From IMG/VR virus record IMGVR_UViG_3300050025_000126, positions 32,001 to 96,000 of that record: a DNA stretch of 64,000 bases. The stretch is one strand, 5' to 3'. Positions 1,180 through 32,984 of this stretch are shown here, piece after piece (position 1 is the first letter of the stretch; the number at the start of each line of letters is the position of its first letter). The position numbers were made by a program, and so were the translations under genes. Source of the DNA: a virus. The notes under the pieces are model-generated. The model worked only from the letters and a program-made list of their open reading frames with translations. It had not been told where the DNA came from and did no database searches.

Positions 1180-3249
1180 GTGTCGTATTTGTCTGGCCCT
1201 TGTGGGGCAGGCGCAGCGGCTCAGGTACCAAACGGTCTGTTTGACAGTGGTCCCACCCTTGCTATAAACCCTGGGACCGAAGCACCAGGCGAAGACCCTA
1301 ATGGAGTCTACGACAACAACCTTTTCGCAACTTCTTATCCAAGTAGTTTATTAGTAGGAGATCCAAGGCAATCTTCGCCAGATCTTTTTGCTGTTTCTGT
1401 AGGTCAATCTAGTGCTACTGGGGCTTTAATTGAAGCCAAGAATATAGTTGGTTTGTCCGTTTTTTCTTCAAGTTTATTAGCCTCTACAAAAATAAGCAAA
1501 AGTCTCAGCGGGGTTACAGCAGGTTTTGTTAGTGGGGCTAGCGCTAGCGAAAAAGTTGCCCGAGCCTTAGGTGCTATTAGTGTTGGTCAGCTTTCGTTTA
1601 CAACCAGCACTCTTGGAAGAATAAAGATACTGCAAGGGTCTATTAGTCTTTTGTCTAGCCTGTCTGTTGCTTCCAACATTTCAAAGAGGATAGCCGGTAC
1701 GAGTGCTGGAGTTTTTAATCTATCCGCCTCTACAAAAATAAGCAAAGCTATTGGAGGCTCTTCGACATTTGTCTCAAGTGTAACAGCTAACGAAAGAACA
1801 GCTAGAAGTTTCTTAGGGAGCACTGCTTTTGTGTCTAGCTTCCCTTCGGTCAATCAAAAAATAGCACGCAGTGTCAAAGGGGCTTTTGTTCTTCAATCTA
1901 GTTTAACGGCCACCGAAAAGGTTCTAAGAACCATTGTGGGGCCGGTTGTTCTTCAGTCGAATGTAACGGCGACAAAACAAAACGTAGCCCGTACAGTTCA
2001 AGGCTTAAGCCAGGCTACTTCCTCCTTAACTATAAGCAAACCGAACGTAAGCCGTAAATTCGTTGGGAGCATTCCTTTTCAGTCTTCTGTTGCAGGGGCT
2101 TCTAAAGTTTCTAGACCAATAGCAGGAAGCGTTATAGTTGTTTCAAGTGTTGTCGGTTCTGGGGCTATTAAGAGAAACCTTGGGGGTAGCGTTCAAGGGC
2201 AGTCTAGCTTAGTTTTGCCAATAAGGGTAGCTAGAAGGTTTTCCTCTTCTGTGGCTGATATTCTTTCTATGTCAGGTACGCTTAGTGTTCAGGAATTGGC
2301 CAAGCTACTTGTTGCACAGATAGACCTTGTGTCTTTGGTCGTCGCTAACATCAAAATACAGAAAGCAATGAAAGGCACCGTTGCTGATAGCCTAGGGGTG
2401 TTTGGGTCCGCAAGCTTGAGCAAGAGACTGGTCGGGGTTTCTAGCGCCGTAAGTCAATTTAGCGCAACTAGACAAAATATAACACGTCTGGTTGTTGGCT
2501 CTTCAGCATTCCACCTAGGTGTAACTGGTAGCATCAAAGAGAATAAGGCCCTTTACTCCTCCTTTGGCGCCTCTAGTACCTTTGTCTCTACATCAAACTT
2601 AAGCCGTAAACTTGCCGCTAACGCTTCTTCTTTACTGTCTATCTCTGCCTCTCCAAGGGTTTTAAGAGCGACTAGGGGTAATGTGACAGCTTCCCTTCAA
2701 GTGGCCTCCAATGCTTCCGTAAAGTTTTCTATGAAAGGGTTCGTTTCGTCTGCGTTAGGGGTGGTTTCTAATATTGCCCTCAACAAGAGACTGTTTGGAA
2801 ATGGTACAGGGTTTTCCCATGTAGAAGGTAATGTTGGGGCGCGTCGGGGGCTTTTTGGTAGAACAGACCTATTTTTGGTCTCAAGCAGTTCTTTTGTAGT
2901 TTTGCGTCACTTAGAAGGCGCTAGCAGTGGCCAATTCACTTTTGATACTAAACCCTTCGACAATCAAGTAGTAATAGTAATAGATACCATTACTGGAGAC
3001 GTTGTCGATGTCTTTTACGTTTTGAACAGTAATTTAGACAACTCCTTGGACGATTCCTTGGGAGGAGACATAGATATATACACAGAACTCGTGGGAGACG
3101 TAGAGGACCGGGATGTTGTAGTTGGTAGTATAGAGCCTAAATCTTCTCTAGAGGGAGAGATTATTCCTTTGATCTATCCTCTAATTACTTCTGTAATATT
3201 GGCCCCAAACAGTTCTATTAAAGGGGACATCGATCTCAGCTTGAGATAA
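1180..3249 (+). CDS. repetitive Ser/Gly/Val-rich virion protein (~20-aa beta-strand repeats, acidic C-terminus)
   Basis: 689-aa ORF with periodic (K/R)x(L/I/V)xGxxxxxSS(L/V) units, within a structural operon. Confidence 0.6.
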   Translation: MSYLSGPCGAGAAAQVPNGLFDSGPTLAINPGTEAPGEDPNGVYDNNLFATSYPSSLLVGDPRQSSPDLFAVSVGQSSATGALIEAKNIVGLSVFSSSLLASTKISKSLSGVTAGFVSGASASEKVARALGAISVGQLSFTTSTLGRIKILQGSISLLSSLSVASNISKRIAGTSAGVFNLSASTKISKAIGGSSTFVSSVTANERTARSFLGSTAFVSSFPSVNQKIARSVKGAFVLQSSLTATEKVLRTIVGPVVLQSNVTATKQNVARTVQGLSQATSSLTISKPNVSRKFVGSIPFQSSVAGASKVSRPIAGSVIVVSSVVGSGAIKRNLGGSVQGQSSLVLPIRVARRFSSSVADILSMSGTLSVQELAKLLVAQIDLVSLVVANIKIQKAMKGTVADSLGVFGSASLSKRLVGVSSAVSQFSATRQNITRLVVGSSAFHLGVTGSIKENKALYSSFGASSTFVSTSNLSRKLAANASSLLSISASPRVLRATRGNVTASLQVASNASVKFSMKGFVSSALGVVSNIALNKRLFGNGTGFSHVEGNVGARRGLFGRTDLFLVSSSSFVVLRHLEGASSGQFTFDTKPFDNQVVIVIDTITGDVVDVFYVLNSNLDNSLDDSLGGDIDIYTELVGDVEDRDVVVGSIEPKSSLEGEIIPLIYPLITSVILAPNSSIKGDIDLSLR

Positions 3250-3259
3250 ATAAATCTTT

Positions 3260-3754
3260 TTAGATATCATACGTATTAAACCCAAACCCACCCATAGAAT
3301 AATAGCGCGGCTTAGAATCGCTCCTGGGAGTCAATAGGACCATCACAGAAGTAAGCAAATCTTGGCTTGGCTTAGGCGTATCTTTCTCAAAATAGAAGAC
3401 AACCGGCAAAGAGAACTTCTTTAATGTATTGAGCCATTTAGAAGGTTGAGTTAGCTTCAACTTGATTCCAGGGTGTCGTTTAATAGCTCGCTTAGCTTTG
3501 TGGTTGAGCCTAGGAGCGTAGTTTGGGTTGAGTCTGGAGGTTATCTCCTGCCTGAATTCATCGACGCTTAAATCGCTTTTGGCTTGGTTACAATCATAAC
3601 ACGCTGGGTTGAGATTTCTAATTTTCCAAGTGCCACCTTGAGCTTCGGGTTTAATGTGGTCTAACGTAAGAAGGGTAGATGGCTCACCGCAGTAAGCGCA
3701 TCTACCCTCGTACTTATTGTATATCTTTTGTCTTTTTGTCTGGCCTGGTTTCAT
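3260..3754 (-). CDS. HNH endonuclease
   Basis: CAYCG...TLDHIKP...GG....NL.PACYDCNQAK. Confidence 0.85.
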   Translation of the reverse strand: MKPGQTKRQKIYNKYEGRCAYCGEPSTLLTLDHIKPEAQGGTWKIRNLNPACYDCNQAKSDLSVDEFRQEITSRLNPNYAPRLNHKAKRAIKRHPGIKLKLTQPSKWLNTLKKFSLPVVFYFEKDTPKPSQDLLTSVMVLLTPRSDSKPRYYSMGGFGFNTYDI

Positions 3755-3795: not shown

Positions 3796-4998
3796 TTATA
3801 CCTTTCGGCGGAACTTCTTGAACTTGGCATTAAAGGGGCCTACGACGCAGCTATAATAGGTTCGATCTAGAGGTCCCCAAACCGGTTCTTCTTCGTTAAA
3901 ACCAACAACCTGTTCATCTGAAATTCTAAGGGGTTCATTCTCAATAAGAAATCGATACCCATCTCCTACCTTACGCCGTGCAACAAGACTACCTCCGCAG
4001 TCTCCAGGTGTATCTTCCGCAAGTCCACCAACAGCTATCCAGCTGCTGTTACCCATTGCGGCAAAAATAATTTCATCGGTCTTTTTCATCTTCTCGTCCT
4101 GTCCTAGGCGTCGATATCCCTTGCCAACATCGAAGCCATCGTAAGGAATGGGCTCTACGGGCATAGCTTGCTTGTCTTCGGTGCGTTCAAGCTCAGTGGC
4201 CCAGAACCAGGAATGAGTGTACTTTTCCTTTTCTTGCGGTACGTCATACTTGACACGACACGCCTTATTGGCTAGCTTGTTATAATATCTGTAATCCACA
4301 ATGACGCCCGTAGCTCCAAGGAATCGAGAATATTTGCTCGACACCTTAACCCTATCGTGGGATTGAACAACGCTGGCAGGCTTTGCTGGCTGTTCATATT
4401 TGTAATCGTTTGGCACCTTGCGGCGATATTCAAACCCAGAAAAACCCAGCATATTGGTCTGACACCCTACCCAATGGGGGCGAACGTCTAGCCACTCATT
4501 GGAAAGATTCTTGTCGAAATATTCATCCCCAGTTTCCAGCTTCTCTCCAGCCTTCAGTGGGCGATACTTTTGAACCGGTGTGACAATCTTGCGGCGGTAA
4601 TAGCTCCAGGATGTGTCTCTTGCATTAACCAGACAGCCTACACGGTCAGAAGGACGCCAGGTATTGTCAAGGGCAAGCCATTCGTCACCCTTTTCGATAG
4701 TCTCGCCTTTAACCATATACCTATAACCCGCGTCACAGGCTTTGGGCAATGGACTAACCGGCTCTGGCTTGACTTCAGGTGCCTTAACCTCCACCTTGCG
4801 GCGGAACGTAACGCCTTTCATTTCTCCAATTTTGTTTCCAATGCAGGCGTGAGCGTGGATGAAGTGTGGCTTATTTTTGTATTCTCCATTACTAAAATCA
4901 ACGTCCCAAACAAATTCGTCCCCTTCCTTAACGACCTCTCCCTTACGAAGCCATCGGTAACCTGGTGCGCACTTTGGTCTACGGGTCTTTGTACTCAT
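3796..4998 (-). CDS. multi-module protein: 5 'YRxL-GE-GDE...W...RRK' repeats plus a KOW/SH3-like domain
   Basis: Five internal repeats visible in the translation; own sigma70-like promoter and AGGAG SD. Confidence 0.75.
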   Translation of the reverse strand: MSTKTRRPKCAPGYRWLRKGEVVKEGDEFVWDVDFSNGEYKNKPHFIHAHACIGNKIGEMKGVTFRRKVEVKAPEVKPEPVSPLPKACDAGYRYMVKGETIEKGDEWLALDNTWRPSDRVGCLVNARDTSWSYYRRKIVTPVQKYRPLKAGEKLETGDEYFDKNLSNEWLDVRPHWVGCQTNMLGFSGFEYRRKVPNDYKYEQPAKPASVVQSHDRVKVSSKYSRFLGATGVIVDYRYYNKLANKACRVKYDVPQEKEKYTHSWFWATELERTEDKQAMPVEPIPYDGFDVGKGYRRLGQDEKMKKTDEIIFAAMGNSSWIAVGGLAEDTPGDCGGSLVARRKVGDGYRFLIENEPLRISDEQVVGFNEEEPVWGPLDRTYYSCVVGPFNAKFKKFRRKV

Positions 4999-5033: not shown

Positions 5034-5103
5034 ATACTAACATATCTTAAAAAGTTGTCAATACTTTATTTTAGGTTGACTTTAAATTAAAGTATGGTAA
5101 GAT
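5034..5103. promoter_or_regulatory. divergent sigma70-like promoter pair
   Basis: Minus strand TTGACA-16-TAGTAT (5061..5034); plus strand TTGACT...TAAGAT ending at about 5103. Confidence 0.6.
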
Positions 5104-5111
5104 GGTTGGTC

Positions 5112-5720
5112 ATGGAAACTTTTAAGAAAATTCGTAGGTGGTATGAAGGTTGGCACGTTGGGCCACTTAAACACGTGAGCCGGTTCTTGTATTGGCTTAG
5201 AACCCATACCTATAATAGATATCACATGTTGAACTTAAAGAATAGTAGAAACGGTTATGCCTGGGGATATTTAGACAAGTCTGAGGGCATTCTTTTTGCT
5301 AATATGGCGATTTTGGTTGACTTTGTTGAAAAAGAAAAAGCCTTTGATTGTCACGTAGATTGGCGTAGTGCGGCGGAATGTAACGCCAACGGAGAAAACG
5401 AAAACGACCCATCTAGTGATGCCAATCGTGATGCCCATGCAGCGGCCAAGAAAGAAATACTTGAAATTTATAATTGGTGGGTCAAGGGGCGTAAAGAAGA
5501 ACACGATGCGTTGGATAAGATGTCCGATGACGCATACCAACACACCTCTTTCAAATTAGAGCCATCTAAAGACCACCCTAAAATGTTTGATATGGTAACA
5601 GCTAACCGTCCTTCCAGCGACGTGGTAGAAGACCTTTGGAACCGCGAATCCGCTCTAGAAGAAAAAGATAAAGAAATGATGATTCGGCTTATCAAGGTCT
5701 CTGGATTTATGTGGACCTAA
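5112..5720 (+). CDS. hypothetical phage protein
   Basis: ORF track 5094..5720; Met at 5112 lies downstream of the -10 box. Confidence 0.6.
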   Translation: METFKKIRRWYEGWHVGPLKHVSRFLYWLRTHTYNRYHMLNLKNSRNGYAWGYLDKSEGILFANMAILVDFVEKEKAFDCHVDWRSAAECNANGENENDPSSDANRDAHAAAKKEILEIYNWWVKGRKEEHDALDKMSDDAYQHTSFKLEPSKDHPKMFDMVTANRPSSDVVEDLWNRESALEEKDKEMMIRLIKVSGFMWT

Positions 5721-6380: not shown

Positions 6381-6990
6381 CGACTTTTGCACGCCACCCG
6401 AATTAGTACAGCCAATTAAAGAGTTTTTCGGAGGGAAGATAGACCTAGACCCATGTAGTAATAAGAACAGCTTGGTTAAGGCTTGTACGGAGCTGATGTT
6501 GCCAACCAATTCATTAATGCAGAATTGGTGCAAACTTGGAACAACTGTATTTGTAAATCCTCCTTATGCTCCTTACTATTTGAGTGAAGACGGAACGCTT
6601 TGTCTTTCTGCTTCTGAGCGTAAGGAATATACAGGCCCGGCCCACTTAATTCGTTATACAATTAAGACCTGGCTGTGGAAAGGGAAAGAGGAGGCTAAGA
6701 ATGGCTGCGAATTGATTTATCTTATTCCGGCTAGGGGAGCAGGCAGTTTGGTTTGGCAGGATATCATCTTCCCATATTCTGACGCTATTTGCTATTTAAA
6801 GAAGCGTACTCCATTTTGGGAGAATGGAGAGCCCTGCAAGGGTCCAGATGGTACAGTCAACCCTGGCACATTTGATTGTGCTCTGGTATACTTTGGGCCG
6901 CAGTATTGGGAATTTAAGAAACACTTCAGTAAGTTGGGGTACGTCTTAATTCAGGATATGGCTCTCCCAGAGGAAAGGCTAAACTCATGA
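6364..6990 (+). CDS. phage DNA N6-adenine methyltransferase (Dam-like)
   Basis: F.TP, IDLDPC and VFVNPPY motifs, then LIPAR. Confidence 0.85.
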   Translation: MSNQSNDFCTPPELVQPIKEFFGGKIDLDPCSNKNSLVKACTELMLPTNSLMQNWCKLGTTVFVNPPYAPYYLSEDGTLCLSASERKEYTGPAHLIRYTIKTWLWKGKEEAKNGCELIYLIPARGAGSLVWQDIIFPYSDAICYLKKRTPFWENGEPCKGPDGTVNPGTFDCALVYFGPQYWEFKKHFSKLGYVLIQDMALPEERLNS

Positions 6991-7196
6991 AGGGCTGGAT
7001 TTACGTTGTTAATTGTCCCGAAGATTGGTCTAATACCGCTGGCGGACATAATTATCAAATTCTAGACGCACCGCATGTTATGGCGCAAAACAAAGACCCT
7101 AAGTGGGAATGTACTGAATGTAAAGCTATCATATCCGGAGTCGGATTGGACCCACCCGATCAGTGCTACAGCTGTATGGACAAGTGGCTAAAGTAG
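6987..7196 (+). CDS. small Cys-rich hypothetical protein
   Basis: ATGA overlap; two CxxC pairs. Confidence 0.45.
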   Translation: MKGWIYVVNCPEDWSNTAGGHNYQILDAPHVMAQNKDPKWECTECKAIISGVGLDPPDQCYSCMDKWLK

Positions 7197-9722: not shown

Positions 9723-10395
9723 TCAAGACAAAACAAATAAGGCCATAGCCCTTGGTAAGAAATTCTGTCCTGATTACAATGTCAAGCTAAAAAGTTCTAG
9801 CTGGGTACAAAAGGCTATCGGGTGGGTTCTAGGTAAAATTGGTAATAAAGATTACATGAATAGTTACTGTACCACGATGGGTCAAACCACCTACGTGCCC
9901 AATATGGACGGTGACTACTTGTGGGCAACTCTCCTACACGAAATCCAACACGCCAAAGACGCCCAAAAGATTAGTAACACCCTATTCGGTACAGCTTACC
10001 TTATGCCTCAGTTGCTCGGTATCCTGGGTGTCTTCTATACCCTCGTGGTTAGCATTGGCTGCGTGTTTGGCTGGCCTTTGGCGCTTCTATGGGGCTGTAC
10101 CTCTCTTTTATGTCTAGCGCCTCTACCGGCATTTGGGCGGGCCTATATTGAGGTAAGAGGTTATACCGTTTCCTTGGCTGTTTATTTTTGGGCCGGTGTG
10201 TTACAAGACGAACAGGCCTACATCGAATTCCTTGTTAATACTTTTAGTAGCGGGGCTTACTATTTTATGTGGCCGTTTAAATCTTGGGTTCGCTCCTACT
10301 TCCAACAGAAGCTCCAGGAGCTTAAGACCGGGCAGTTTCAATTAGACGCTTATCTGGCAGCGTGTAAGGTCCTGGCCAAAGATTTAGCCAACTAG
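9715..10395 (+). CDS. membrane-associated HExxH zincin-like protein
   Basis: LLHEIQH, hydrophobic hairpin, downstream E.RGY. Confidence 0.6.
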   Translation: MTNQDKTNKAIALGKKFCPDYNVKLKSSSWVQKAIGWVLGKIGNKDYMNSYCTTMGQTTYVPNMDGDYLWATLLHEIQHAKDAQKISNTLFGTAYLMPQLLGILGVFYTLVVSIGCVFGWPLALLWGCTSLLCLAPLPAFGRAYIEVRGYTVSLAVYFWAGVLQDEQAYIEFLVNTFSSGAYYFMWPFKSWVRSYFQQKLQELKTGQFQLDAYLAACKVLAKDLAN

Positions 10396-11415
10396 AGCTG
10401 CCTCCTTTACAATTGATTGAACTACCGTATTAATTTCTTTCAGGTTCGGACTACTAGGCAGCAAGGTCTTTTTCAGAGCCAGTTGAATTAGGCTTTCTGC
10501 ATCGCTAGCCCAAGCCTCTATCTTTTCAAAAGGCCAAGAGCCTTCGCGGATTTCAATAAGTTCTTTTGCGTCTGGACGTTTGATGATTAGTGTACCAGTT
10601 TCAAGGCACTCTAGACATTCTCTATAGAGTCTAACCAAATGCATTAAATGCTTGGAGTCATATCCGCATTTCTCTTCCAACAGCTTTCGCTTAGGGTTTC
10701 TGGACTTAGCCCAATTATCGTAAGCTTCCTTTTGACTTACTAGAGCACTGTACCTCTTCTCCTTATACAAAAGCTCTACGAAGTTGGTTTCAAAGCCCAG
10801 GCCCTTGGCGGCTTCTTTGTATAAATCTAGCTGTTGGGTTTTGTCAATAGCCCAGTCGCCAGCCATCATATCCAGGACCTTTGTCACAGAGGCATCTGCT
10901 GCGTGGAGCTTGGGTACCATACTTCTAGCGGGCAGGCCGAATTCTTCGCGGGTGGGAATTTGAAGCACTGGGTTAAGAAGGTAGCCGCGATGCGTCCTGA
11001 TTTTATGGAGTTGGCCCTTTGCGTAACCGGCAAATGTAGCGGCAATTCTCTTAGACAAGAACGAGCGCCTAATGCTCCTAATCCTCTCCCACTGCGGAGT
11101 AGTCAATAGGATATCTGATTCGTCAACAAACAAAAGCTCTAAAATATTAGGATTGTTGTCATACGCCAGCTTGGCGAATTTCAACAAAGAAAACACCTCA
11201 AAATCATAAGGCTCTTTACCTTGAGCCTGGTCGAATTTTTCTACGAAACCAAACACAACCTCGGGCGGCAAAGTGGCTACACCTTTGATATCAACGTCCG
11301 ACCCTTCTATGTTTGTGTTATAGCAGTGACTACCAGCCAAGGTCAAAAAAATAACGTGTTCTTTCAACCATTTTGGATTTTGTGGATATTGAAGTGTGTC
11401 TAGATCTATTTTCAC
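10384..11415 (-). CDS. Pol-beta family nucleotidyltransferase (RlaP/YcgL/NrdC.11-like)
   Basis: GSHCY....SDVDIKGV, NNPNILELLF, GYDSKHLMHLVRL motifs. Confidence 0.85.
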   Translation of the reverse strand: MKIDLDTLQYPQNPKWLKEHVIFLTLAGSHCYNTNIEGSDVDIKGVATLPPEVVFGFVEKFDQAQGKEPYDFEVFSLLKFAKLAYDNNPNILELLFVDESDILLTTPQWERIRSIRRSFLSKRIAATFAGYAKGQLHKIRTHRGYLLNPVLQIPTREEFGLPARSMVPKLHAADASVTKVLDMMAGDWAIDKTQQLDLYKEAAKGLGFETNFVELLYKEKRYSALVSQKEAYDNWAKSRNPKRKLLEEKCGYDSKHLMHLVRLYRECLECLETGTLIIKRPDAKELIEIREGSWPFEKIEAWASDAESLIQLALKKTLLPSSPNLKEINTVVQSIVKEAALVG

Positions 11416-12742: not shown

Positions 12743-12820
12743 AATTAAGTTCGTCGGTAGAATCTCCTGGTCTCTCCGACACCCGTCTCAGCCCTAGTAG
12801 CCAGGCCTTGGTCTGAAACA

Positions 12821-13198
12821 TTGCAGACATATTATCACATCGGGTTTTTAAGTCAAGAAGTAATCTTAGGGGTAGGAAAGGCGGGTAGCCAAATCATAAT
12901 CCCTTCAGATGAAATTGTGTCCAAAAGCATCGTAGGAAAACTTGGGAACAAGGTCCTATGGGCGGTTTCAACCATTGGAGGACTTTTTCTAGTAGAATCT
13001 AGATCTCCAGACGGGTCCAAAACTGTCTTAGGAGCTGGTTCGCACCGAGGTGTCGCTCGCATGGTGGCTAAAAGACTACAGCCCGATATCGAATGGACGG
13101 TTTTAGAGAAAAACCAAGAAATTGATGAACGCGATGTCGAAGATATTTTACCGTTCTGGATTCAAGTCGTAGAGATGGCCCAAAAGAAACTAAGCTAA
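12821..13198 (+). CDS. hypothetical (probably virion) protein; start uncertain
   Basis: ORF abuts 13199; AATCTT at 12862 suggests a later start. Confidence 0.5.
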   Translation: MQTYYHIGFLSQEVILGVGKAGSQIIIPSDEIVSKSIVGKLGNKVLWAVSTIGGLFLVESRSPDGSKTVLGAGSHRGVARMVAKRLQPDIEWTVLEKNQEIDERDVEDILPFWIQVVEMAQKKLS

Positions 13199-14026
13199 AT
13201 GGAATCTCCTGGTCTAAAGCCTACAGTCAACAGTATTCGTTTCCCTACAGCTACTAGCGTCGCGTTTGACCTACAGGCTTTCAACGATGGTATTGCCGCT
13301 CACGGATTACTTTTTATTCATCTCCGAGCCATGCGTGACCCCGTTGGTTTAATTGATAAATTTGACGCCCGAAGGCCTAATCCTAGTAGTAAGGAAGCTC
13401 TTAATGGATGTATTCATACTCGGGCAGGCATAGTCAGAGCGTTGTGTCTTGGTAACACTAAAGAAACAAAAGCTTCCGATGCAGGACTAACTGACTCGGC
13501 TCAGGCTCAATTCACCCCATTGAGTCAATATGAAGACACAGGTAAAAGAGTGTTCCTGGCCCCTTATGACCGATTGCTATTGCAAGAAGAATCGGTTTTG
13601 GTGACGAGACACGAATTGATAGAAGCTTCCCCCACTGGTATTGACCGTCCAAAATTCCCGGCTGTGGAGATACTAGACTGTATCGACGCTAACAGCATCA
13701 GGTATCACCAGGGTACCGATTTTGAGATTACTCAAGACGGATTAATTGTATGGAAAGATAGAAGGCCTGGACAAGATGTATCCTCTGGGAAAGGAATTGT
13801 TTTTGGAATTAGGTACGTCTATAGACCGTTTTGGATTGTCGCTAGGATGATTCACGAAATTAGAATGGTACAATGCGATAATTTTCTAACTGGCGAACGT
13901 ACCATGGTCCAAGCGCCTCAATCAGCATTGATCTATCGCGAATTCTATTTTGAAAGCGAAGCCGCTGATTCTGGCACTAGAGCGTCAGAAGAAGGCCCTT
14001 CCAACGGGCAAATAACTGCTCAATAG
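13199..14026 (+). CDS. putative neck/head-completion protein
   Basis: Plus-strand virion-type protein with a Y.QG.DF.I..DG.I.W....P motif typical of large-myovirus neck proteins; the call is inference. Confidence 0.45.
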   Translation: MESPGLKPTVNSIRFPTATSVAFDLQAFNDGIAAHGLLFIHLRAMRDPVGLIDKFDARRPNPSSKEALNGCIHTRAGIVRALCLGNTKETKASDAGLTDSAQAQFTPLSQYEDTGKRVFLAPYDRLLLQEESVLVTRHELIEASPTGIDRPKFPAVEILDCIDANSIRYHQGTDFEITQDGLIVWKDRRPGQDVSSGKGIVFGIRYVYRPFWIVARMIHEIRMVQCDNFLTGERTMVQAPQSALIYREFYFESEAADSGTRASEEGPSNGQITAQ

Positions 14027-14507: not shown

Positions 14508-15278
14508 TTACGACACCTTGCGGCGGAAGCGTCTCCCCGGAGTGGTGCTACCGGTGCAACTTGGCCAAATAACAGGAATATAACCAACAGAAGCCTTCAC
14601 CTTCTTCCATCCGCGCTTACACGTATAATACTGGTCATTTTCCTTAATAACCTCTGTAGGCTCCAATTCTCGATACTTAGAGGCCTTCTTTGCTGGCTTC
14701 TTTTCAACCACATCTACCAATTCCAACTCATGGTCGGCATACTTAGGCGTATCTCCTCCGACTACCAAAACAAAGTTGCGCCATGATTCTGGGGCGTCTT
14801 TCTCTAGGACCTTAAAGACCTTACCAATTTCGCCCTTGCGTCCTGCGTGAAGAATCTTGACACTTTGACCAACCTTGAACTTGGTTTCAACGGGCTTAAC
14901 AATCTTGCGGCGACACCGACCTGCGTTACAAGCTGACAAGTGTTCTGTTCCCGGCTGCGTACAACCGTGGTCATAGGTATGCCACTCCTTATGGTCGTCT
15001 GTCCACTGATCTCCTTTTTGAATGACGTCGCCCACCTTCAAATAATAGTAATCATTATTGGTAGGGTCTGGGCGGTACCAGTTCCGACAAATCTCTTCAT
15101 CCCGCAGAACGTTATTGCCAACATTCCTAGAAATGACCGGCTCTGACTTGGCATACTTGTAGAGCCAAAGGTCGCCTTCCTTGATAACATCTCCATACTT
15201 AAGGAAGCGTCCTGGGGGCAAAACTTCTCGTACTTGCTCTGTCTTGGTGATTTCGCGGGTCCACACATGTTCGTTCAT
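14508..15278 (-). CDS. multi-module protein: 3 'YRxL-GE-GDE' repeats plus a KOW-like domain
   Basis: Same module as 3796..4998; KFKVGQSVKI...G.IGKV KOW motif; own sigma70 promoter. Confidence 0.75.
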   Translation of the reverse strand: MNEHVWTREITKTEQVREVLPPGRFLKYGDVIKEGDLWLYKYAKSEPVISRNVGNNVLRDEEICRNWYRPDPTNNDYYYLKVGDVIQKGDQWTDDHKEWHTYDHGCTQPGTEHLSACNAGRCRRKIVKPVETKFKVGQSVKILHAGRKGEIGKVFKVLEKDAPESWRNFVLVVGGDTPKYADHELELVDVVEKKPAKKASKYRELEPTEVIKENDQYYTCKRGWKKVKASVGYIPVIWPSCTGSTTPGRRFRRKVS

Positions 15279-15305: not shown

Positions 15306-15344
15306 ATAATACCAAAGGTTCGTAGGCGAGTCAACAACAATCTT
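15306..15344. promoter_or_regulatory. bidirectional promoter junction (GTCAACAACAATCTT)
   Basis: Minus TTGACT-17-TATTAT; plus AATCTT 10 nt before ATG 15355. Confidence 0.65.
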
Positions 15345-16107: not shown

Positions 16108-16579
16108 CCAAGAAAAACCAAAATGGCGCAACGTATACGAAACTCTTAAACCAGAGGACCACGACCAATTAGAAGCAAATTCTGCCATTAACGAGTTTAG
16201 GGGTGGACTTCCAAAAGAGGAAGCCGAATCCAAAGCACACCAAGACTACCTCAAGAACCACGCTATGGATAGTGCAGCTTTTCACTATATCGGGATGCGC
16301 GCTGCAACAGCCGCTCAACACGAACCAGCCGCCAAAAAACACGGGGCCGCATACTCCTTGGCTATGAAGCACCTCGGTTTAAACCCGCTAGATGCTCCAC
16401 CCAAAGAAATACTAGATCGCGTGAAGGATGTTGAAAAGTCTCCGTATAAATTCTCTCCACATAGTGCAGATGAATTTTTTGTCCCTAAAATGCCACAACT
16501 TCCAGAGCCAACAGAAGAACAAAAAACTCTAGAGCTAGTTGAAAAGCTTAAATCTATGCGAACAAACAGTCCTAAATAA
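16100..16579 (+). CDS. hypothetical late protein
   Basis: Overlaps the upstream stop; GGAG SD. Confidence 0.6.
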   Translation: MDNQEKPKWRNVYETLKPEDHDQLEANSAINEFRGGLPKEEAESKAHQDYLKNHAMDSAAFHYIGMRAATAAQHEPAAKKHGAAYSLAMKHLGLNPLDAPPKEILDRVKDVEKSPYKFSPHSADEFFVPKMPQLPEPTEEQKTLELVEKLKSMRTNSPK

Positions 16580-16584
16580 CACAA

Positions 16585-17565
16585 ATGTCGCTCTCAGAAA
16601 CTCCAACGTTTAAAACATGTCCAGACTGTAAAACAAAGAAGCCAAGTTCCGCCTTTAACAAAAATGGAAACAAGCTTCAAGACTATTGTAAAGACTGTCA
16701 CTCAAAACGTCAAAAAGCCTCACGCGAAAAAAACAGCAATAGAAAGAACATTGTAATACCAGATTTTAAAACATGCTCTAACTGTGGCGTTGAAAAACCG
16801 TCTTCATGTTTTTGTAGGTCTAGGGGCAATAGAAGCGGCCTTGGCTCTTTTTGTAAGGACTGTCAGTCCAAACACCAGAAGCGCTCATACGGGAAGAACA
16901 AAGCTAGAAAGTATATTTTAATCCCAGACTTTAAGACATGTCCGGGATGTAACATAGAGAAACCGGGTTGTGTTTTTGGGCAATCTAGGGGCTCGAAGGA
17001 TGGACTTGGTGTATACTGCAAGGTATGCTCGGCTATTCATAACAGAAAGCGTAGATACGGTGTCACGGAAGAGTGGTACCAGGCAATCTTACTCGCACAA
17101 AATTACTCTTGTGCTATTTGTAAAACCAAGACACCTGGTGGTAAGGGCACTTGGCACACAGACCACAACCATTTAACGGGTGAAGTTCGCGGACTGTTAT
17201 GTAACAACTGTAATTCGGCAATCGGTTGTTTTAAAGATTCTACCTTTTTAATCGATAAAGCAATTAAATATCTAAGCCTTCCTATGTCGGGTATTGTCTA
17301 CAAAAAAGCTTCGGCTAAAAACATAAGTGCCGCATTTTTAAAGGCCCAAAACGGTTTGTGTAAAGTCTGCCTAACTGACCTATCTATAAAGGGCTCTTGT
17401 TTAGACCACTGTCACTTAACTGGAATAGTTAGAGGCTGTCTTTGTAGATTTTGTAATTTAGGGTTAGGGCGTTTTGGGGATTTTGGGGATTCAGCATCAG
17501 TAATGCAAAGTGCTATCGAGTATCTAATTAAGTTTGAATCCCTTAAGGTCGCTCCGAAAGTTTAA
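16585..17565 (+). CDS. endonuclease VII-family (homing) endonuclease with 3 Zn-ribbon repeats and 2 EndoVII domains
   Basis: FKTCxxC..EKP...F...CK.C three times; DHNHLTGEVRGLLCNNCN and DHCHLTGIVRGCLCRFCN. Confidence 0.85.
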   Translation: MSLSETPTFKTCPDCKTKKPSSAFNKNGNKLQDYCKDCHSKRQKASREKNSNRKNIVIPDFKTCSNCGVEKPSSCFCRSRGNRSGLGSFCKDCQSKHQKRSYGKNKARKYILIPDFKTCPGCNIEKPGCVFGQSRGSKDGLGVYCKVCSAIHNRKRRYGVTEEWYQAILLAQNYSCAICKTKTPGGKGTWHTDHNHLTGEVRGLLCNNCNSAIGCFKDSTFLIDKAIKYLSLPMSGIVYKKASAKNISAAFLKAQNGLCKVCLTDLSIKGSCLDHCHLTGIVRGCLCRFCNLGLGRFGDFGDSASVMQSAIEYLIKFESLKVAPKV

Positions 17566-17693: not shown

Positions 17694-18674
17694 TTAGACA
17701 TTAGTCTTATCCTTGCTGTACCATTCTGTGCGAGCCTTGACTGCACCATCAAAGGCCTTAAGGCAATTCGCTAGATACTTGGCCAAAATATAATCCGGTG
17801 TGTCACTGCCGTTTTCGAGGGTATACTTCTTAATAAGCAGCTTTAGCTCATGGGTGAAGGTAGTTGACTTTTCTTCTACTTTGGATTCTACTGGCTTGAC
17901 GTCTGGAATTGTGGTCTCCTTCTTTACCACACTAGTAATCTTGCGACGATAACGGTCTCCCCCTTTCCCAAATCCCGAATCTCCTACTTTGGCATTGTAA
18001 GGCGTATAATGTCCTGAGGACCCCATCCAGTCGTCACGACGGTATTCAAACTGGTCTCCTTCAATCAACTTCTCCCCAATGTCCAAATAGCGATGCGTTG
18101 CGTCTTGCATACGAATAGGACGACGAATCTCTCCATTCTTTACCCAACTCTTCCCTACAACCATGCCATGCGCCCCAGGGCTAGTAACGGCTTCCCACAC
18201 GCCCCTATTATTCTTCCACTGGTCAGTAGTCGTAGTCGCTACTTCGCCCTCTGCAAGAATACGATATTCAATCTTTTCAACCGGTTTAGCTACAGGTTCA
18301 GAGGTCTTAACCTCAACAACAGGCTTGGTAACTCGCGGGCGACGGTATTGGGCCTCTAGAATGTCTTTCTTTTCTAGAGCTTCCCCGTAAGACGACACAA
18401 TCTTTTGCCACTCCTTTTGATTCCTACACCGGTATTCGTCACCCTTACGCAGCTTGTCACCAGTGCGTAGCTTGATGTAGGGCGAAAGAGTCTTTGGCAC
18501 AGGACGGCGAAACCGGAATCGCAATACTCCACTGTTTTTCCACTTGTTGGGAGTGTTGATTCCATCTCCGGTCCACTTATTTACATCTTCCCACTTATCC
18601 TTAAATGGGTATGCCCACTGGTCTCCAAGCTTAATGGCTTCGTCTGCTCCTAAAATTCTATACTTTGTCTTCAT
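17694..18674 (-). CDS. multi-module protein: 4 'YRxL-GE-GDE' repeats plus a C-terminal LENGSDTPDYILAKYL helical phage domain
   Basis: Repeats visible in the translation. Confidence 0.75.
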   Translation of the reverse strand: MKTKYRILGADEAIKLGDQWAYPFKDKWEDVNKWTGDGINTPNKWKNSGVLRFRFRRPVPKTLSPYIKLRTGDKLRKGDEYRCRNQKEWQKIVSSYGEALEKKDILEAQYRRPRVTKPVVEVKTSEPVAKPVEKIEYRILAEGEVATTTTDQWKNNRGVWEAVTSPGAHGMVVGKSWVKNGEIRRPIRMQDATHRYLDIGEKLIEGDQFEYRRDDWMGSSGHYTPYNAKVGDSGFGKGGDRYRRKITSVVKKETTIPDVKPVESKVEEKSTTFTHELKLLIKKYTLENGSDTPDYILAKYLANCLKAFDGAVKARTEWYSKDKTNV

Positions 18675-19093: not shown

Positions 19094-19879
19094 TTAATTT
19101 GAGGAAAGGTCAAGGTTTAAGTTTTTGTATATCAGTTTTACCAGTTCTAAGAAGTCCTCATAAGACATAGCCAACTTGGCGCGATTGCATCTTCCACAAC
19201 AGGAAACACAATTATCGATCTCGTAACCCTTAGAGTTATCTTTTCTGTCTATACCATTGTAGATGTATATTGATTTTTCTATGCCTCTAGCGGTTACGGT
19301 ATTTCCGCTTGATTTAATTATTTGTGAGGGCTCTTTCCCGCAATACCAACACGGCTGCTTTGACAGCCATTTGATGTCGTCAATGCCTAAAGAAAACGTC
19401 AGACTACGTCTTATAGCGTTAGCTTTATAGCTTCGACACAGCCTACGGAAGCTGGATTCTCCATCTGGAAGAGTCCAATTTGCCATTCTATTACAGCCAC
19501 AAGATATTCTTCGCCCTTTTCTTAAACAAAAACCAGTTACTAAGACTTCTTTGCCGCAAAAACACTGACAAATCCATTCGTATGATTTTTGGGAAGATTT
19601 TGATTGACCTATTACTTTAAGATATCCAAAAACAGATCCTATCTTTATAGGTATTTTGTTCTGTTTGCCAACCTTTCTCATTGTTTCAGATTTAATACAT
19701 CCACAAGAGGTCCTTTTATGATCTCTTAGGCTTTTGCTTGTAGCCTCTAACGTTTTATCACTACCACACTCACACCTGCAAAGCCACAGTATTTTATTGC
19801 GGGCAGACCTCTTACCGGTTTTATTTAAAACCCTAAGACGACCATATAGATGTCCTGTAATATCTATTTCAGGTGGCAT
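19094..19879 (-). CDS. HNH-type homing endonuclease
   Basis: Two G..(Y/F)G.L.V...W.C.C.CG repeats; CWYCG...GIDRKDN.KGY...NCVSCC..CNRAK. Confidence 0.8.
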   Translation of the reverse strand: MPPEIDITGHLYGRLRVLNKTGKRSARNKILWLCRCECGSDKTLEATSKSLRDHKRTSCGCIKSETMRKVGKQNKIPIKIGSVFGYLKVIGQSKSSQKSYEWICQCFCGKEVLVTGFCLRKGRRISCGCNRMANWTLPDGESSFRRLCRSYKANAIRRSLTFSLGIDDIKWLSKQPCWYCGKEPSQIIKSSGNTVTARGIEKSIYIYNGIDRKDNSKGYEIDNCVSCCGRCNRAKLAMSYEDFLELVKLIYKNLNLDLSSN

Positions 19880-21040
19880 TTAATCATAATCTCGGATGCT
19901 TTTTCCAATAGGGAACCGAGGAATTCCATAGGCGGTAAGTTGCTGATACTTTATTGTAAGTAACTTGTTTTTCCACTGTTTTGGTTCGTTAAACAACTCC
20001 CTGCGCCTCTCATAAGTAGCCCTTAGGCGTGCTTTAAATTCCGATCCATCCTTGGTCTTACATACAAATGCCCCAACCGTTCCGGCGTCCTTACCTCGGC
20101 CCTCTTCTGCACCAATTATAGGCCACTCGGCTTCCTCAAAATTCTTTAGTTTTTGTAAATAGTAAGAGCGCTTGCCTCCTTCGTAAGGGCCATCTCCGCG
20201 AACCATAGATCCTTCAAAGTTTCCTTCAAGGTTTTTCTCGTGACACGCCATAATTTCATCGTCATTATGACAGATAGCCGTTTCTACAGGAACAAGTGGG
20301 CCACCAAAGCAATTGTAATTATCCTTTAGCCATCTGTCTCTAACAGAAAAAGTACCTTTATTACTTGGTACGTCATAGATATGATAATCCACCTTCTCAT
20401 GACCTGGTCCAGGTTCACTTTGGCGGATAAGACTCATAAGTTCTTCAAATTGATCGTGATACTTGACTGAATAAGCCTCTCCATCAAGAACCAGATCGGG
20501 ATACTTTTTGCCAAAACGTTCTTCAACGGCTTTGACAATATGTGGCAAGGAATTCACCTGTTTTCTGGTGCGACTCCACAGTGTACACTTACCGTTGCTC
20601 AAAACGGCCACTAGACGCGAACCATCATATTTGCTCTGTACGTAAACAGGAAACGTAAGCTTGTGCTTAAAGGTAGGATAGATTTTAGACGGGGCAAGCA
20701 TAACATCAACCCCACCTAAAATAACAGTAGAATCAATCTCTCCGTTTTCTGCATCCTCAAGGCTTTCGACGTATTTCTTCTTTTTTTGTTTGGTCCACCT
20801 CGCTTCTGCCTCTGCCAGAGCCTGTTGTGCCGCCGTGGTCGCATTGGCCCTGCCCTGGTTCTTGCCCGACTTAATCGTCTCAGTGGCTACCTGAATAGCC
20901 CCACCAAGTTGACCATGGCTTACCGTGATTTGGTCTCCATTAACCTGAATCTGCCAGGTTTGAATAGCTCCCGTAGACGACTTTTTATAGAGAATCGGGA
21001 GAGTGTTTGTGTTTACGCCGTTTTTTAGTTCTTGAAACAT
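19880..21040 (-). CDS. lig: ATP-dependent DNA ligase with N-terminal WGR-like domain
   Basis: QSKYDGSR adenylation motif, LDGE, FEGSMVR, KLK, C-terminal OB fold ending PRFP. Confidence 0.9.
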   Translation of the reverse strand: MFQELKNGVNTNTLPILYKKSSTGAIQTWQIQVNGDQITVSHGQLGGAIQVATETIKSGKNQGRANATTAAQQALAEAEARWTKQKKKKYVESLEDAENGEIDSTVILGGVDVMLAPSKIYPTFKHKLTFPVYVQSKYDGSRLVAVLSNGKCTLWSRTRKQVNSLPHIVKAVEERFGKKYPDLVLDGEAYSVKYHDQFEELMSLIRQSEPGPGHEKVDYHIYDVPSNKGTFSVRDRWLKDNYNCFGGPLVPVETAICHNDDEIMACHEKNLEGNFEGSMVRGDGPYEGGKRSYYLQKLKNFEEAEWPIIGAEEGRGKDAGTVGAFVCKTKDGSEFKARLRATYERRRELFNEPKQWKNKLLTIKYQQLTAYGIPRFPIGKSIRDYD

Positions 21041-30049: not shown

Positions 30050-31329
30050 TGTTAGCTATACAAGATGTAGCAAATAGTAATGGTCCAGCCACCATTGGGA
30101 CAGATTTCTTACTTAGCTCTATTGAACTGGTAGACGATCAAACTCTTTTGGTTTGGTTTACGAGAAATACCACTGGGGCAACCACTACCAGCAACTATAC
30201 TGTGACTGGACCCTCTGCCAGATCTGTAATCTTAGCCCAACAAAATGACCTAAACGGAGCTAGGATATATCTAGATCTACCGCTAACGGTAGGCCAATGG
30301 ACTCTATCCGTAACCTCTATCACATCAAACGACCCAGACGCTTTAACCCTTCCATCAGACACTAAAGTAATTTTCGATTTGGTAGATAAGTCTACTCAAG
30401 ATACTGTAGGCACCAATCTAGTCGAAGCTCCTGTATCAAAATTCATCCCCAAGGAGTTTAGGAACAAGAAGGTAGTAGGAGCTATCATCGCTGGCTTAGA
30501 AACCGGTGACGCTATTGTTAGAGATCAGACCCGCCTAGCTTTTGACCAAAGCTTCTTGTCTACGGCTAGCGGCAAATATCTAAACACCAAGGCAAGTGAT
30601 AGAGGCGTTCCTAAGCCGACGAAACTAGGATTGTCTGACACACAATTCAGAAAACTAGCAATAGATATAACAAACAGTAAATTGACCAATGCCGCTCTTT
30701 TGTCAGTTTTGGAAACTATGTATGGCGAAGATTCAGTAAGAGCCTATGTAGAGACAGAGATGTCGGGACCTTTCCAATTATTCGACCAAGGATATCTGGA
30801 TTTTTTTGTAGACGGCAAACATTCCTTTAGATTTGTAGCAAATATTTCAGGTTACACAACACCGACAGCCGTAACATCTGTTGAGTTGTGTAATTCTTTG
30901 AACTTTGCTTTTGATAAAAACAGCTTTCCAGCGCATGCAATTATAAAAAGAGAAAAGGTTAGGGTTTACAGTAATACGACAGGCATCCAGTCTAAAATAT
31001 CAATAAAAGGTGGAACACTACAGCCTTACGTCGGATTTGATTTAGATGTTTTTGAAGGAACGGGTTCCTTAAACCAACTTTCCAGTGCTTCCTGGACCCT
31101 TACCAACCCAAGACCAGGGATAGTAAGATTTACGTTGGTAAACCCAGAGCCTGCTCTCCCAGGAGTTCTAGCTTTCGTTACAGAAAAAGACTATGTTACT
31201 GTAATTGGTAGTGAATTCCCACTACCATTAAGGGGTAGCTACAATCTTGTTGCCGTAAACTGGACACAAACCTCTCCAACCGTTTGTGTTCAGTGGTTTG
31301 AGATTGAATCTTCCTATGTGGTAGTCTAA
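30049..31329 (+). CDS. baseplate protein (wedge/I-like)
   Basis: FLSTASGKYL...ASDRGV.KP..LGLSD..FR motif; coupled to the J-like gene. Confidence 0.6.
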   Translation: MLAIQDVANSNGPATIGTDFLLSSIELVDDQTLLVWFTRNTTGATTTSNYTVTGPSARSVILAQQNDLNGARIYLDLPLTVGQWTLSVTSITSNDPDALTLPSDTKVIFDLVDKSTQDTVGTNLVEAPVSKFIPKEFRNKKVVGAIIAGLETGDAIVRDQTRLAFDQSFLSTASGKYLNTKASDRGVPKPTKLGLSDTQFRKLAIDITNSKLTNAALLSVLETMYGEDSVRAYVETEMSGPFQLFDQGYLDFFVDGKHSFRFVANISGYTTPTAVTSVELCNSLNFAFDKNSFPAHAIIKREKVRVYSNTTGIQSKISIKGGTLQPYVGFDLDVFEGTGSLNQLSSASWTLTNPRPGIVRFTLVNPEPALPGVLAFVTEKDYVTVIGSEFPLPLRGSYNLVAVNWTQTSPTVCVQWFEIESSYVVV

Positions 31330-32984
31330 TGAGCATCAACCAAACCTATTTAAAAGATCTGTGGTTCTGGAACCCTAAGACCAAAAGAATCTTCGATAAC
31401 GATTTGTGGGCCTCTGTAACTCAAATAGACGGCGTAGCCAAGGTTTCTATTCCCGCGACCTCTCAAGCCGTAAACAGAACAAACGGATTTGCAGCATATT
31501 TAAGGTATCCTTTCTATGTAGAGCCAACTATTGCAATTAGCCCCGCGCCAAGTCAGGTAACCAGATCTTCTCAGGCTTATTCTGACGCAGAAGGTAATGT
31601 TCAACCCAGAATCTCTGCTATTTATTCAGCATCTGCGTTAATTGTAACTTCTGATGGCAACCCCTCCCCGGCCCCTGGCTTAGATGTAGGTAGCGTTCTA
31701 TTAGTCGAGGGATCTGTTAATAACGGCCCTAGGGGTTCTACTGCCGCTACTGTCTATCCAGTCGCCCCAGCGGCCTATAAACCTCACGTAGGCGCTTTGG
31801 GACAGGCGGTAGTAGGCCGTTCTACGACTTCTAATACTCAAAACATGTGGTTTGTTGGTGGGAACGCTAGCTTTGGCTCAGCGTCTTTATATTCTCCTAA
31901 AACAGGCGTTGATTTTGTCCAAGTTACCTTGAATGACGATAGCTCCTTGACGGTTACAGATAGCCTAGTTGGTACCGTAAATAACCTATTCCCGTCTTGT
32001 TGCGTTATTGAAGGGGAGAGATTTCTAGATCAATTATTCTACACAGGCGGAATGACTTCTTGGTCTACCCTTAGCGCAGCAACAAAAATGATTAGTCCTA
32101 CAGGCGTAGAAACAGCTGTTACAGACTGCCCAGAAAACGTAACAAAAGCCGCTTGCCTTAGCTCTCCTTACCCAACCACAACCTTTCTCCCTACTACAAA
32201 ACACTATATCACCGTTATCGGTGGGTTAAACGATGCTTTAACAGACTCTAAAGATAGCGTATGGTCGTATGACCCCTACCTGGACGAATGGGGAACTAAC
32301 CATCCCTTGATTACTCCTCGTAGAGACCACCAAACGATCAACATTAATGTCAAAAGGGCCAGCAATTGGGATATTTTAGTTGTTGGTGGTAAAAGGGGCA
32401 TCTTTTCAAACGGTGGACAATTAGGTCCCGCTCCCTCACCTTTGGGTGTTCCTCTAAATTCTTGCGAAATCATTGGTGGATTTGGAGGGGCGCCCTCTAC
32501 CCAAGACCTTTCTCCTCAACGCACAGGTCCTATGGCAGATGCCCGATACGCTTTTGGTATGACGACCTTGCCAGACGATAGGGTGTTGGTTTGTGGTGGC
32601 ATTGGTTACAACCCTAGCTACCCTCAACTCGACCCTGCTGTACCTGAATACAATTACGAGCTGAGTCGTTGTGAGGTTTACGATCCTGAAACACAACTGT
32701 GGACACCTATCCAGCCTATGCTAGAAGCTCACAGCTATTGTGTCTGCCATTGGGTTAAAGAAGCTAACAAAGTGTATGTGTATGGAGGATATGGGTCTAC
32801 ATTGATTGAATACCTGGACCTTGACACTATGCTTTGGCACAAATCAGTCTATACCATGCCTTCGCCAGTTGTTGTTGGTTCTCCTTTTGGTATGGACCAC
32901 GGTTTTATGGGTCTTATTGGTGGCGGGGCTTATGATACGAATACGGGAATTTTTACTCCTAACGATAACGATATTTTAATGTAA
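31329..32984 (+). CDS. Kelch-repeat virion/baseplate protein
   Basis: MADARYAFGMTTLPDDRVLVCGG, CEVYDPETQLW and similar repeats. Confidence 0.7.
   Translation: MSINQTYLKDLWFWNPKTKRIFDNDLWASVTQIDGVAKVSIPATSQAVNRTNGFAAYLRYPFYVEPTIAISPAPSQVTRSSQAYSDAEGNVQPRISAIYSASALIVTSDGNPSPAPGLDVGSVLLVEGSVNNGPRGSTAATVYPVAPAAYKPHVGALGQAVVGRSTTSNTQNMWFVGGNASFGSASLYSPKTGVDFVQVTLNDDSSLTVTDSLVGTVNNLFPSCCVIEGERFLDQLFYTGGMTSWSTLSAATKMISPTGVETAVTDCPENVTKAACLSSPYPTTTFLPTTKHYITVIGGLNDALTDSKDSVWSYDPYLDEWGTNHPLITPRRDHQTININVKRASNWDILVVGGKRGIFSNGGQLGPAPSPLGVPLNSCEIIGGFGGAPSTQDLSPQRTGPMADARYAFGMTTLPDDRVLVCGGIGYNPSYPQLDPAVPEYNYELSRCEVYDPETQLWTPIQPMLEAHSYCVCHWVKEANKVYVYGGYGSTLIEYLDLDTMLWHKSVYTMPSPVVVGSPFGMDHGFMGLIGGGAYDTNTGIFTPNDNDILM

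Follow-up and report, generated by a model that had tools for sequence, protein, structure and literature searches.

Tandem KOW domains of Spt5 and NusG act as multivalent adaptors. LysM, SH3b and Ig-like modules are joined by Pro/Thr-rich linkers, belong to lysins or virion proteins and work outside the cytoplasm, and the variable proteins of diversity-generating retroelements (DGRs), for example Mtd of a Bordetella phage, place a hypervariable binding surface on a fixed scaffold. The open reading frames (ORFs) of hyperplastic regions evolve fast and are thought to adapt phages to their hosts, and new counter-defence mechanisms keep turning up at the phage-host interface. Such regions of T4-type phages, with small accessory ORFs that carry early promoters and lie between conserved modules, were reportedly described by Comeau et al. 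in 2007, and the Ig-like accessory domains of phage structural proteins are said to have been described by Fraser et al. in 2006. Here we analyze a short module repeated in minus-strand genes of a 64,000-nucleotide stretch of viral DNA (the window), which comprises bases 32001-96000 of the 107,276 bp single-contig genome of an uncultured phage, IMGVR_UViG_3300050025_000126; the genome sequence is also present in public metagenome runs from peat and permafrost. The reading we favor, at a probability of roughly 40%, is that proteins built of this module are multivalent adaptors, probably early, that bind changing host targets in takeover or counter-defence.

Start and end motifs delimit 15 units (5, 3, 4 and 3) of 47-57 amino acids each in four minus-strand genes of the window, and the alignment of these units gives [G/K]YRxLxxGExIxxGDE...W...G...YRR[K/P][V/I]. 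The genes and their units are:

3796-4998, minus strand: module gene 1 (P0004, 400 aa), five units and a central beta barrel
4792-4962, 4585-4728, 4414-4569, 3967-4119 and 3799-3960, minus strand: units of gene 1 (P0004)
14508-15278, minus strand: module gene 2 (P0001, 256 aa), three units and a KOW-like domain
15063-15212 (variant), 14901-15053 and 14514-14678, minus strand: units of gene 2 (P0001)
17694-18674, minus strand: module gene 3 (P0002, 326 aa), four units and a helical C-terminus
18498-18665, 18333-18482, 18114-18269 and 17937-18098, minus strand: units of gene 3 (P0002)
52230-52991, minus strand: module gene 4 (P0003, 253 aa), three units and a coiled coil
52719-52880, 52407-52547 and 52236-52400, minus strand: units of gene 4 (P0003)

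Profiles built with one gene left out recovered the omitted gene with E values of 1e-13 to 4e-22, and shuffled controls (200 per protein) reached a profile score of at most 7 bits. Beyond the window, the 15-unit profile detected 13 units in six additional genes, each of them encoded on the minus strand; none of the plus-strand frames of the genome scored. A sequence-only reading of the same DNA had proposed about 15 units in four minus-strand genes; the number and its split among the genes proved exact, and the family is larger, with 28 units in 10 genes. The six further genes, located with the 15-unit profile and given as open frames in genome coordinates, are:

19211-20023, minus strand: module gene, four units
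16316-17038, minus strand: module gene, three units
12811-13356, minus strand: module gene, two units
6935-7126, minus strand: module gene, one unit
31313-31930, minus strand: module gene, two units, weak
2095-2313, minus strand: module gene, one unit, weak

The first unit of gene 2 (15063-15212) has a variant form, GRFLK...GDL...YRPD. Units of this type (LPxGRxLK...GDL...YRPD) open four of the genome's module proteins and, judged by their motif, mark a sub-family.

The sequence-only reading could assign the module to no named family, and our searches led to the same result. The unit matched no family in Pfam, NCBIfam, PHROGs, PADLOC or the PDB sequences. A profile search of the PDB sequences gave a best E value of 0.2, on the G-D hairpin of LytM, and the PADLOC defence profiles gave nothing at E <= 0.01 with six family members. 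The sole Pfam row within the unit was DUF7204 (E 0.19, 23 residues of P0002), an identity rejected at 12.6 bits against a gathering cut-off of 27 bits. Searches of 50,697 GenBank phage records by blastn and tblastn with the region, P0004, P0021 and P0148 gave no match, even at E 1, and a literature search for the motif strings of the unit returned unrelated papers only. When 1.84 billion representative proteins were searched with the 28-unit profile, 1,399 clusters (defined at 50% identity) matched at E <= 1e-3 and 317 at E <= 1e-10; every cluster looked up was metagenomic, and none carried an informative name. A degenerate DNA pattern for the motif matched eight IMG/VR viral contigs and gave, in 185,579 prokaryotic species genomes, one weak partial match, which adjoins an integrase-like (tyrosine recombinase) gene in a metagenome-assembled genome of Verrucomicrobiia; the unit profile found nothing in 401 Verrucomicrobiota genomes. 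The same profile matched six of six viral records tested, and record G002 has 11 units in about five genes. Searches for related loci, with P0004 in viral contigs and with P0022 in metagenome contigs, found none. On this profile evidence the unit is a real, well-defined, new and unnamed domain family that is common among uncultured phages but goes unseen in Pfam, PHROGs, NCBIfam, the PDB and the genomes of cultured phages.

The conservation of the unit was determined over 414 complete units taken from 167 proteins, the module proteins among the best profile matches, in which each protein holds 2-9 units and the unit spans 40-68 residues (median 48). D15 and R49 were conserved in 100% of these units, R50 in 98%, L5 and W25 in 94% and Y2 in 88%, and R3, E9, G14 and E16 at 77-83%. 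Positions 17-47, except W25, carry less than 1.3 bits each and are near-random, the fixed ends and hypervariable core that had been described from the window. AlphaFold2 modeled a single unit with a predicted local distance difference test (pLDDT) score of 89.7 and four strands at residues 2-4, 16-19, 25-28 and 47-51, in agreement with the small beta scaffold supposed earlier, and we are confident that the unit, as modeled, is a small, autonomously folding four-strand beta domain. Foldseek with this model found no convincing match in the PDB (E 1.6-5, template modelling (TM) score 0.15-0.38), the top rows, all non-significant, being cupin and cNMP-binding barrels. Structure searches of BFVD returned uncharacterised phage proteins only (best match in Pseudomonas phage SM1, probability 0.99, E 0.13), and matches in the ESM Atlas scored no higher than 0.80, with TM <= 0.23.

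A hydrophobic-x-x-G-D-x-hydrophobic hairpin together with a non-contiguous strand constitutes a GD box. This supersecondary element was reportedly described by Alva et al. in 2009 (Protein Sci 18:1961). The best-conserved stretch of the unit, I11-x-x-G14-D15-E16-aromatic, fits the hairpin pattern (over the 414 units, I, L or V in 90% at position 11, G14 in 83%, D15 in 100% and Y, F or V in 60% at position 17), and a GD box in the unit would account for the structural invariance of D15 as well as for the cupin and cNMP-binding rows of Foldseek. However, the GD box is a local element common to many folds and not a family, and what the unit matches is its sequence pattern. The unit has 48-52 residues with four modeled strands, whereas the cNMP-binding and cupin barrels are eight-strand jelly-rolls, and its similarity to these barrels is probably that of the G-D hairpin alone.

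The conserved charges of the frame are balanced 3:3, with R3, R49 and R50 as the bases and E9, D15 and E16 as the acids. The variant first-unit class drops Y2, E16, W25 and R50 jointly and retains R3, L5, D15 and R49, and replacement of R3 by Y or I accompanies replacement of E9 by D; because of this co-variation the sequences suggest that each conserved acid is paired with a conserved base within the domain. The basic RRK ends had been taken as a hint of RNA binding, which found no support, and none of the results ties the family to RNA, the ribosome or the tRNA-like RNAs. The ends are matched one for one by E9, D15 and E16 and co-vary with the frame (R50 with E16, Y2 and W25; R3 with E9), and would therefore be contacts within the frame and not a patch that binds nucleic acid. 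The same residues could be read otherwise, with R3, E9, D15 and R49, together with the Y and W residues, as a common nucleic acid or nucleotide site and the cores as unconstrained loops. Arrayed in tandem, the units would bind DNA, RNA or small nucleotides with avidity and would tether fused enzymes to these ligands, and binding of RNA, the ribosome or tRNA-like RNAs would be a sub-case. The retention of D15, R49 and R50 in units of very different phages and the basic character of most module proteins (pI 8.9-9.6 in 8 of 10) fit such a site. On the other hand, the balanced and pairwise co-varying charges, single units near neutrality (net charge -1 to +3 in 12 of 15), one acidic module protein (pI 5.8) and the lack of likeness to any known nucleic-acid-binding family or fold speak against it, and we regard a conserved nucleic acid or nucleotide site, although the foremost alternative to adaptors for changing targets, as rather unlikely.

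Divergence was assessed against the IMG/VR phage G001 (65,981 bp), a relative syntenic with the window. Module genes 1-4 are 34, 38, 41 and 39% identical to their positional orthologues in G001, whereas most neighbouring genes are 45-91% identical (median near 66%); by this comparison the module genes are diverging faster than nearly all their neighbours. Within these pairs the frame is 52% identical, the core 25% with 35% gaps and the other parts (partner domains) 45%. Between near-identical strains, 10 of 14 amino-acid changes fell in cores (binomial p = 0.011). The gene at genome position 19208 showed six changes in or beside one unit and none in its other ~220 residues, P0002 showed three changes inside one core, and in one strain gene 14508 carried 5 single-nucleotide polymorphisms against none in the adjoining 997 bp (p = 0.01). 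The diversified loops postulated by the sequence-only reading are in line with very fast divergence and with strain differences concentrated in the cores. This clustering is odd for the neutral loops that a conserved ligand site would leave, as the linkers are at least as free to change.

Whole units are also gained, lost and exchanged. Gain and loss were found among five P0004 orthologues, and in the G001 orthologue of gene 4 there are additional units, of which one is most similar to the fourth unit of gene 3 (E 6e-15), an exchange between paralogues that bears out the shuffling proposed earlier. The number of KOW-like domains varies among orthologues and strains: the G001 orthologue of gene 2 (L013 13927-14946) has two, and the near-identical strain protein P0162 (locus L001, genome 16313-17023) has an extra 52-aa KOW-like insert. 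The last unit of the G001 gene 2 orthologue lacks the YRRK end and, to judge from its sequence, may be frameshifted or decaying. Two joints inside module genes (4801-4984 and 17909-18240) were not used, their sides being shorter than 30 nt. When the genome was compared with itself by blastn, no repeat was found between units except one 49-bp, 84% match in a linker; the units are without DNA similarity, which argues against both a DGR and recent duplication. A DGR origin of the variability was rejected on the absence of repeat pairs in this comparison, which included no search for a reverse transcriptase. In the gene at 5094-5720, 13 substitutions lie within 67 bp (5558-5624) in the X2 strain, ten of them also in X3; this cluster looks like a recombination patch because its flanks are nearly identical.

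Full-length P0004 was modeled by AlphaFold2 with a predicted TM score (pTM) of 0.25, its units at a pLDDT of ~60-85 (means of 10-residue blocks) and its linker segments below 50, and on this model the protein is a string of beads. P, E, A, V, K and T are abundant in the linkers; the Pro/Lys/Val linkers reported earlier were recovered as Pro/Glu/Val/Lys-rich segments. A beta-propeller built of units was rejected because the copy number ranges from 1 to 9, the linkers are long, a lone unit folds and the pTM is 0.25. All three kinds of partner domain proposed by the sequence-only reading (KOW/SH3-like, coiled-coil and helical) were found in the window:

4120-4413, minus strand: SH3/KOW-like beta barrel of P0004 (aa 196-293; AlphaFold2 strands at 216-272)
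14679-14900, minus strand: KOW-like domain of P0001
17715-17861, minus strand: helical C-terminal domain of P0002
52548-52706, minus strand: coiled coil of P0003 (weak coiled-coil Pfam matches)

The central barrel of P0004 is conserved among its five orthologues, the C-terminus of P0002 matches phrog_31227 (unknown function) at E 1.3e-8, and the coiled-coil stretch TLKDQLANAMAEINELKAK of P0003 is identical in G001. Among the rows that Foldseek gave for the full-length P0004 model were KOW arrays of Spt5 (E 2.6e-3) as well as PetP and PsaE, two SH3-like proteins with a match probability of 1.0; these rows, in which the aligned part of the model is not displayed, probably reflect the central barrel. 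A KOW identity for the unit itself was rejected, since Pfam hmmscan of the four proteins gave no KOW up to E 10 and hhalign of the unit with the KOW-like partners gave probabilities of 0.1-0.3% (0.1% for the P0004 barrel). At these probabilities, all below 1%, the KOW partners, which had been taken as a hint to the role of the module, have no profile likeness to it. KOW4_SPT5 matched 1 of 139 family members (E 6.7e-4), the matching part of that protein not being displayed.

Most family members consist of units and linkers alone. In other phages units are fused to dGTP_diPhyd_N, and fusions were also found to DUF4406, Nuc_deoxyrib_tr (NDT-like), DUF6378, AAA_5, an HNH-like nuclease (a sub-threshold NCBIfam match of IscB type, E 7e-7), Peptidase_M28 (one case) and an amidotransferase (GATase)-like domain below the Pfam cut-off (one case). 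Fused enzymes that target nucleotides or DNA (dGTP_diPhyd_N, Nuc_deoxyrib_tr/DUF4406, DUF6378 and HNH-like) count in favor of a conserved nucleic acid or nucleotide site. The Peptidase_M28 and amidotransferase-like fusions, together with ~50-aa repeats in variable number and Pro-rich linkers, would fit surface or cell-wall-binding repeats which, like LysM, SH3b or Ig-like decoration, bind glycans on the virion or the host envelope. However, the fused enzymes are for the most part nucleotide enzymes of the cytoplasm, the N-termini of the four window proteins display neither a signal peptide nor a membrane segment, the genes share their strand with the replication genes and have host-type promoters, and no LysM, SH3 or Ig profile matched; glycan binding at a surface is in our view very improbable. 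An identity of the unit with LysM or SH3b cell-wall-binding domains was itself rejected, with no Pfam match in 4 + 10 + 139 proteins, partners that are mostly nucleotide enzymes and operons shared with replication genes.

Consensus sigma70-type promoters (-35 and extended -10) were found directly upstream of 6 of the 10 module genes, and the remaining four genes lie within minus-strand operons. Within the window, a separate promoter precedes each of genes 3796 and 14508, which are flanked by plus-strand genes, as the sequence-only reading had noted for at least two genes, and genes 17694 and 52230 lie inside minus-strand operons. The two promoters are:

5034-5061, minus strand: promoter of gene 1, sigma70-type (TTGACA, 16 nt, TAGTAT, with TG)
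15306-15344, minus strand: promoter of gene 2 (-35 TTGACT at 15334-15329, 17 nt, -10 TATTAT at 15311-15306)

An AGGAG ribosome-binding site lies between the gene 1 promoter and the ATG at 4998. The gene 2 promoter sits within AAGATTGTTGTTGAC, an element common to four of the six promoters, the same 15-mer preceding three other module genes. Gene 3 is the last gene of an operon with a DUF3310 gene and an ATP-dependent DNA ligase gene, gene 4 is directly downstream of a ClpP-family gene (52995-53567), itself preceded by a DnaB-like helicase gene, and the DNA polymerase gene is on the same (minus) strand as the module genes. Since the sigma70 promoters lie on the strand of the replication genes, the module proteins are probably made early or in the middle of infection; host-type promoters fit the early expression claimed before, a timing deduced from promoters and strand context. 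The operons that genes 3 and 4 share with DNA ligase and helicase favor a conserved nucleic acid site, as does the neighbour of gene 1:

3260-3754, minus strand: HNH endonuclease gene (164 aa; phrog_2118, E 1.3e-26)

The HNH endonuclease aligns to the C-terminal half of phrog_2118 only (161-295 of 301). Its gene is immediately downstream of gene 1, a pair kept in G001, where the HNH orthologue is 64% identical, and elsewhere (L009) a unit and an HNH-like domain form a direct fusion; from this conserved cassette and the fusion, the gene 1 protein might be the targeting partner of the nuclease. The ClpP-family gene at 52995-53567 (minus strand) lies among replication genes, not head genes, and ends 4 nt before gene 4. 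The adjacency is retained in G001, and the two genes may encode a protease and its adaptor.

Several module genes are one- or two-gene minus-strand units with their own promoters amid plus-strand genes, an arrangement expected of dispensable, mobile 'moron-like' cassettes that insert between operons, drift fast under weak selection and lack a single important function. Presence also varies (the G001 module gene at 31200-31586 has no counterpart in this genome), domain-level insertions and deletions separate strains, and the adjoining genes for HNH endonuclease and endonuclease VII are of classic mobile types. Nevertheless, in a relative that is otherwise ~66% identical in its proteins, all four window genes still occupy the same positions and retain their reading frames, the frame residues are invariant in 1,399 clusters, and the DNA shows no repeat signature of recent spread, so that dispensable cassettes are an improbable explanation.

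Other features of the window are recorded here. The gene at 16585-17565 (plus strand), which adjoins gene 3, encodes a 326-aa protein with two Endonuclease_7 stretches; it has no orthologue in G001 and is absent from contigs of samples X3 and X4, in which 16456 is joined to 17540, and it looks like a free-standing mobile endonuclease gene. The gene at 10384-11415 (minus strand) encodes a nucleotidyltransferase of the RlaP family (RNA-repair pathway); a contig of run X4 has 25 other letters in its place (10364 to 11414), the nearest counterpart in G001 (157 aa) aligns over ~59 residues only, and by these comparisons the gene is a strain-variable accessory gene. The segment 38001-42000 has a G+C content of 51-57% against ~44% elsewhere and ORFs without Pfam or PHROG match (38214-39593 and 39398-41029), and may be foreign. 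The gene at 1180-3249 (plus strand) encodes a 689-aa Ser/Ala/Val-rich protein with a short internal periodicity (...S.S..A...ISK/R..G...) and no Pfam or PHROG match, and its product may be fibre-like.

We return to the reading of the module proteins as multivalent adaptors for changing targets. Each unit would be an independently folding beta mini-domain of ~48 residues, whose frame would consist of the G-D hairpin turn (I11-x-x-G14-D15-E16), the pairs R3/E9, R49/D15 and R50/E16 and an aromatic cluster of Y2, W25 and Y48. The ~30 residues between the parts of the frame would form a hairpin and a long loop, free to vary, as the working surface. The phage strings 1-5 different units on flexible Pro/Glu/Val/Lys linkers and often adds a small barrel of SH3 type or a coiled coil, the latter for oligomerisation, which would give a set of multivalent adaptors transcribed from host-type (sigma70) promoters on the replication-gene strand as early products. 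Core turnover and unit shuffling would keep pace with changing targets of the host or of a rival, and in other phages the units would aim fused enzymes at the target. Fast core turnover together with unit shuffling fits proteins that bind changing host or rival targets, and the combination of an unchanging frame around a free core, a family grown to 10 genes, shuffling and fast divergence is what usually marks proteins of the phage-host interface. That the core is the binding surface, that the product is early and that its target belongs to anti-defence or host takeover we infer, and the interpretation first offered for this DNA is thereby partly supported.

Several points weigh against these adaptors. 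Fast divergence of the cores could reflect relaxed constraint, and the R3/E9/D15/R49 face is invariant enough to form a conserved ligand site instead. Fusions to enzymes are few, with fewer than 10 in ~150 proteins. The conservation figures for the frame are somewhat inflated because the units were chosen with a profile of this genome's own units, and the alignment behind the single-unit AlphaFold2 model comprised the 28 paralogous units only.

A bolder form of the adaptor reading, which we put forward as speculative and rather doubtful, is a phage-specific 'mini-antibody' repertoire, in which a salt-bridged frame of 48 residues would carry a hypervariable insert of 30 residues and the shuffled, early, multivalent proteins would capture defence or housekeeping proteins of the host. 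The captured protein would sometimes be passed to an attached or neighbouring enzyme (ClpP-family, M28, HNH-like or nucleotide hydrolases). If true, this would define a new class of counter-defence adaptors and a new minimal binding scaffold. If the cores bind, the unit would be among the smallest natural scaffolds that tolerate a large variable insert and would be relevant to binder engineering; if they do not, it would be a fast-drifting 'dark matter' domain whose definition still improves phage annotation.

Compared with the known systems, the module proteins resemble DGR variable proteins in combining, in a phage, a fixed scaffold with a hypervariable part, but their variation includes insertions, deletions and exchange of whole units, and the blastn self-comparison gave no pair of template and variable repeats. 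With LysM, SH3b and Ig-like domains they share promiscuous small beta modules (~45-100 aa) of variable copy number, linkers, fast evolution and enzyme fusions; unlike these, the module genes lie on the replication strand and in its operons with host-type promoters, their partners are mostly nucleotide enzymes, and they gave no profile match. As in the hyperplastic regions of T4-type phages, fast-evolving, promoter-bearing genes, often on the opposite strand, lie between conserved blocks, although here most cassettes belong to one domain family (10 genes, 28 units) and their positions are kept in a relative. The KOW arrays of Spt5 and NusG (PF00467; for example 5OIK chain Z) are likewise small beta domains on flexible linkers, with Spt5 giving the best PDB rows for the model, and KOW/SH3-like barrels occur within the module proteins as partner domains. 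By analogy with these systems, the family would be kin to tandem arrays of small binding domains.

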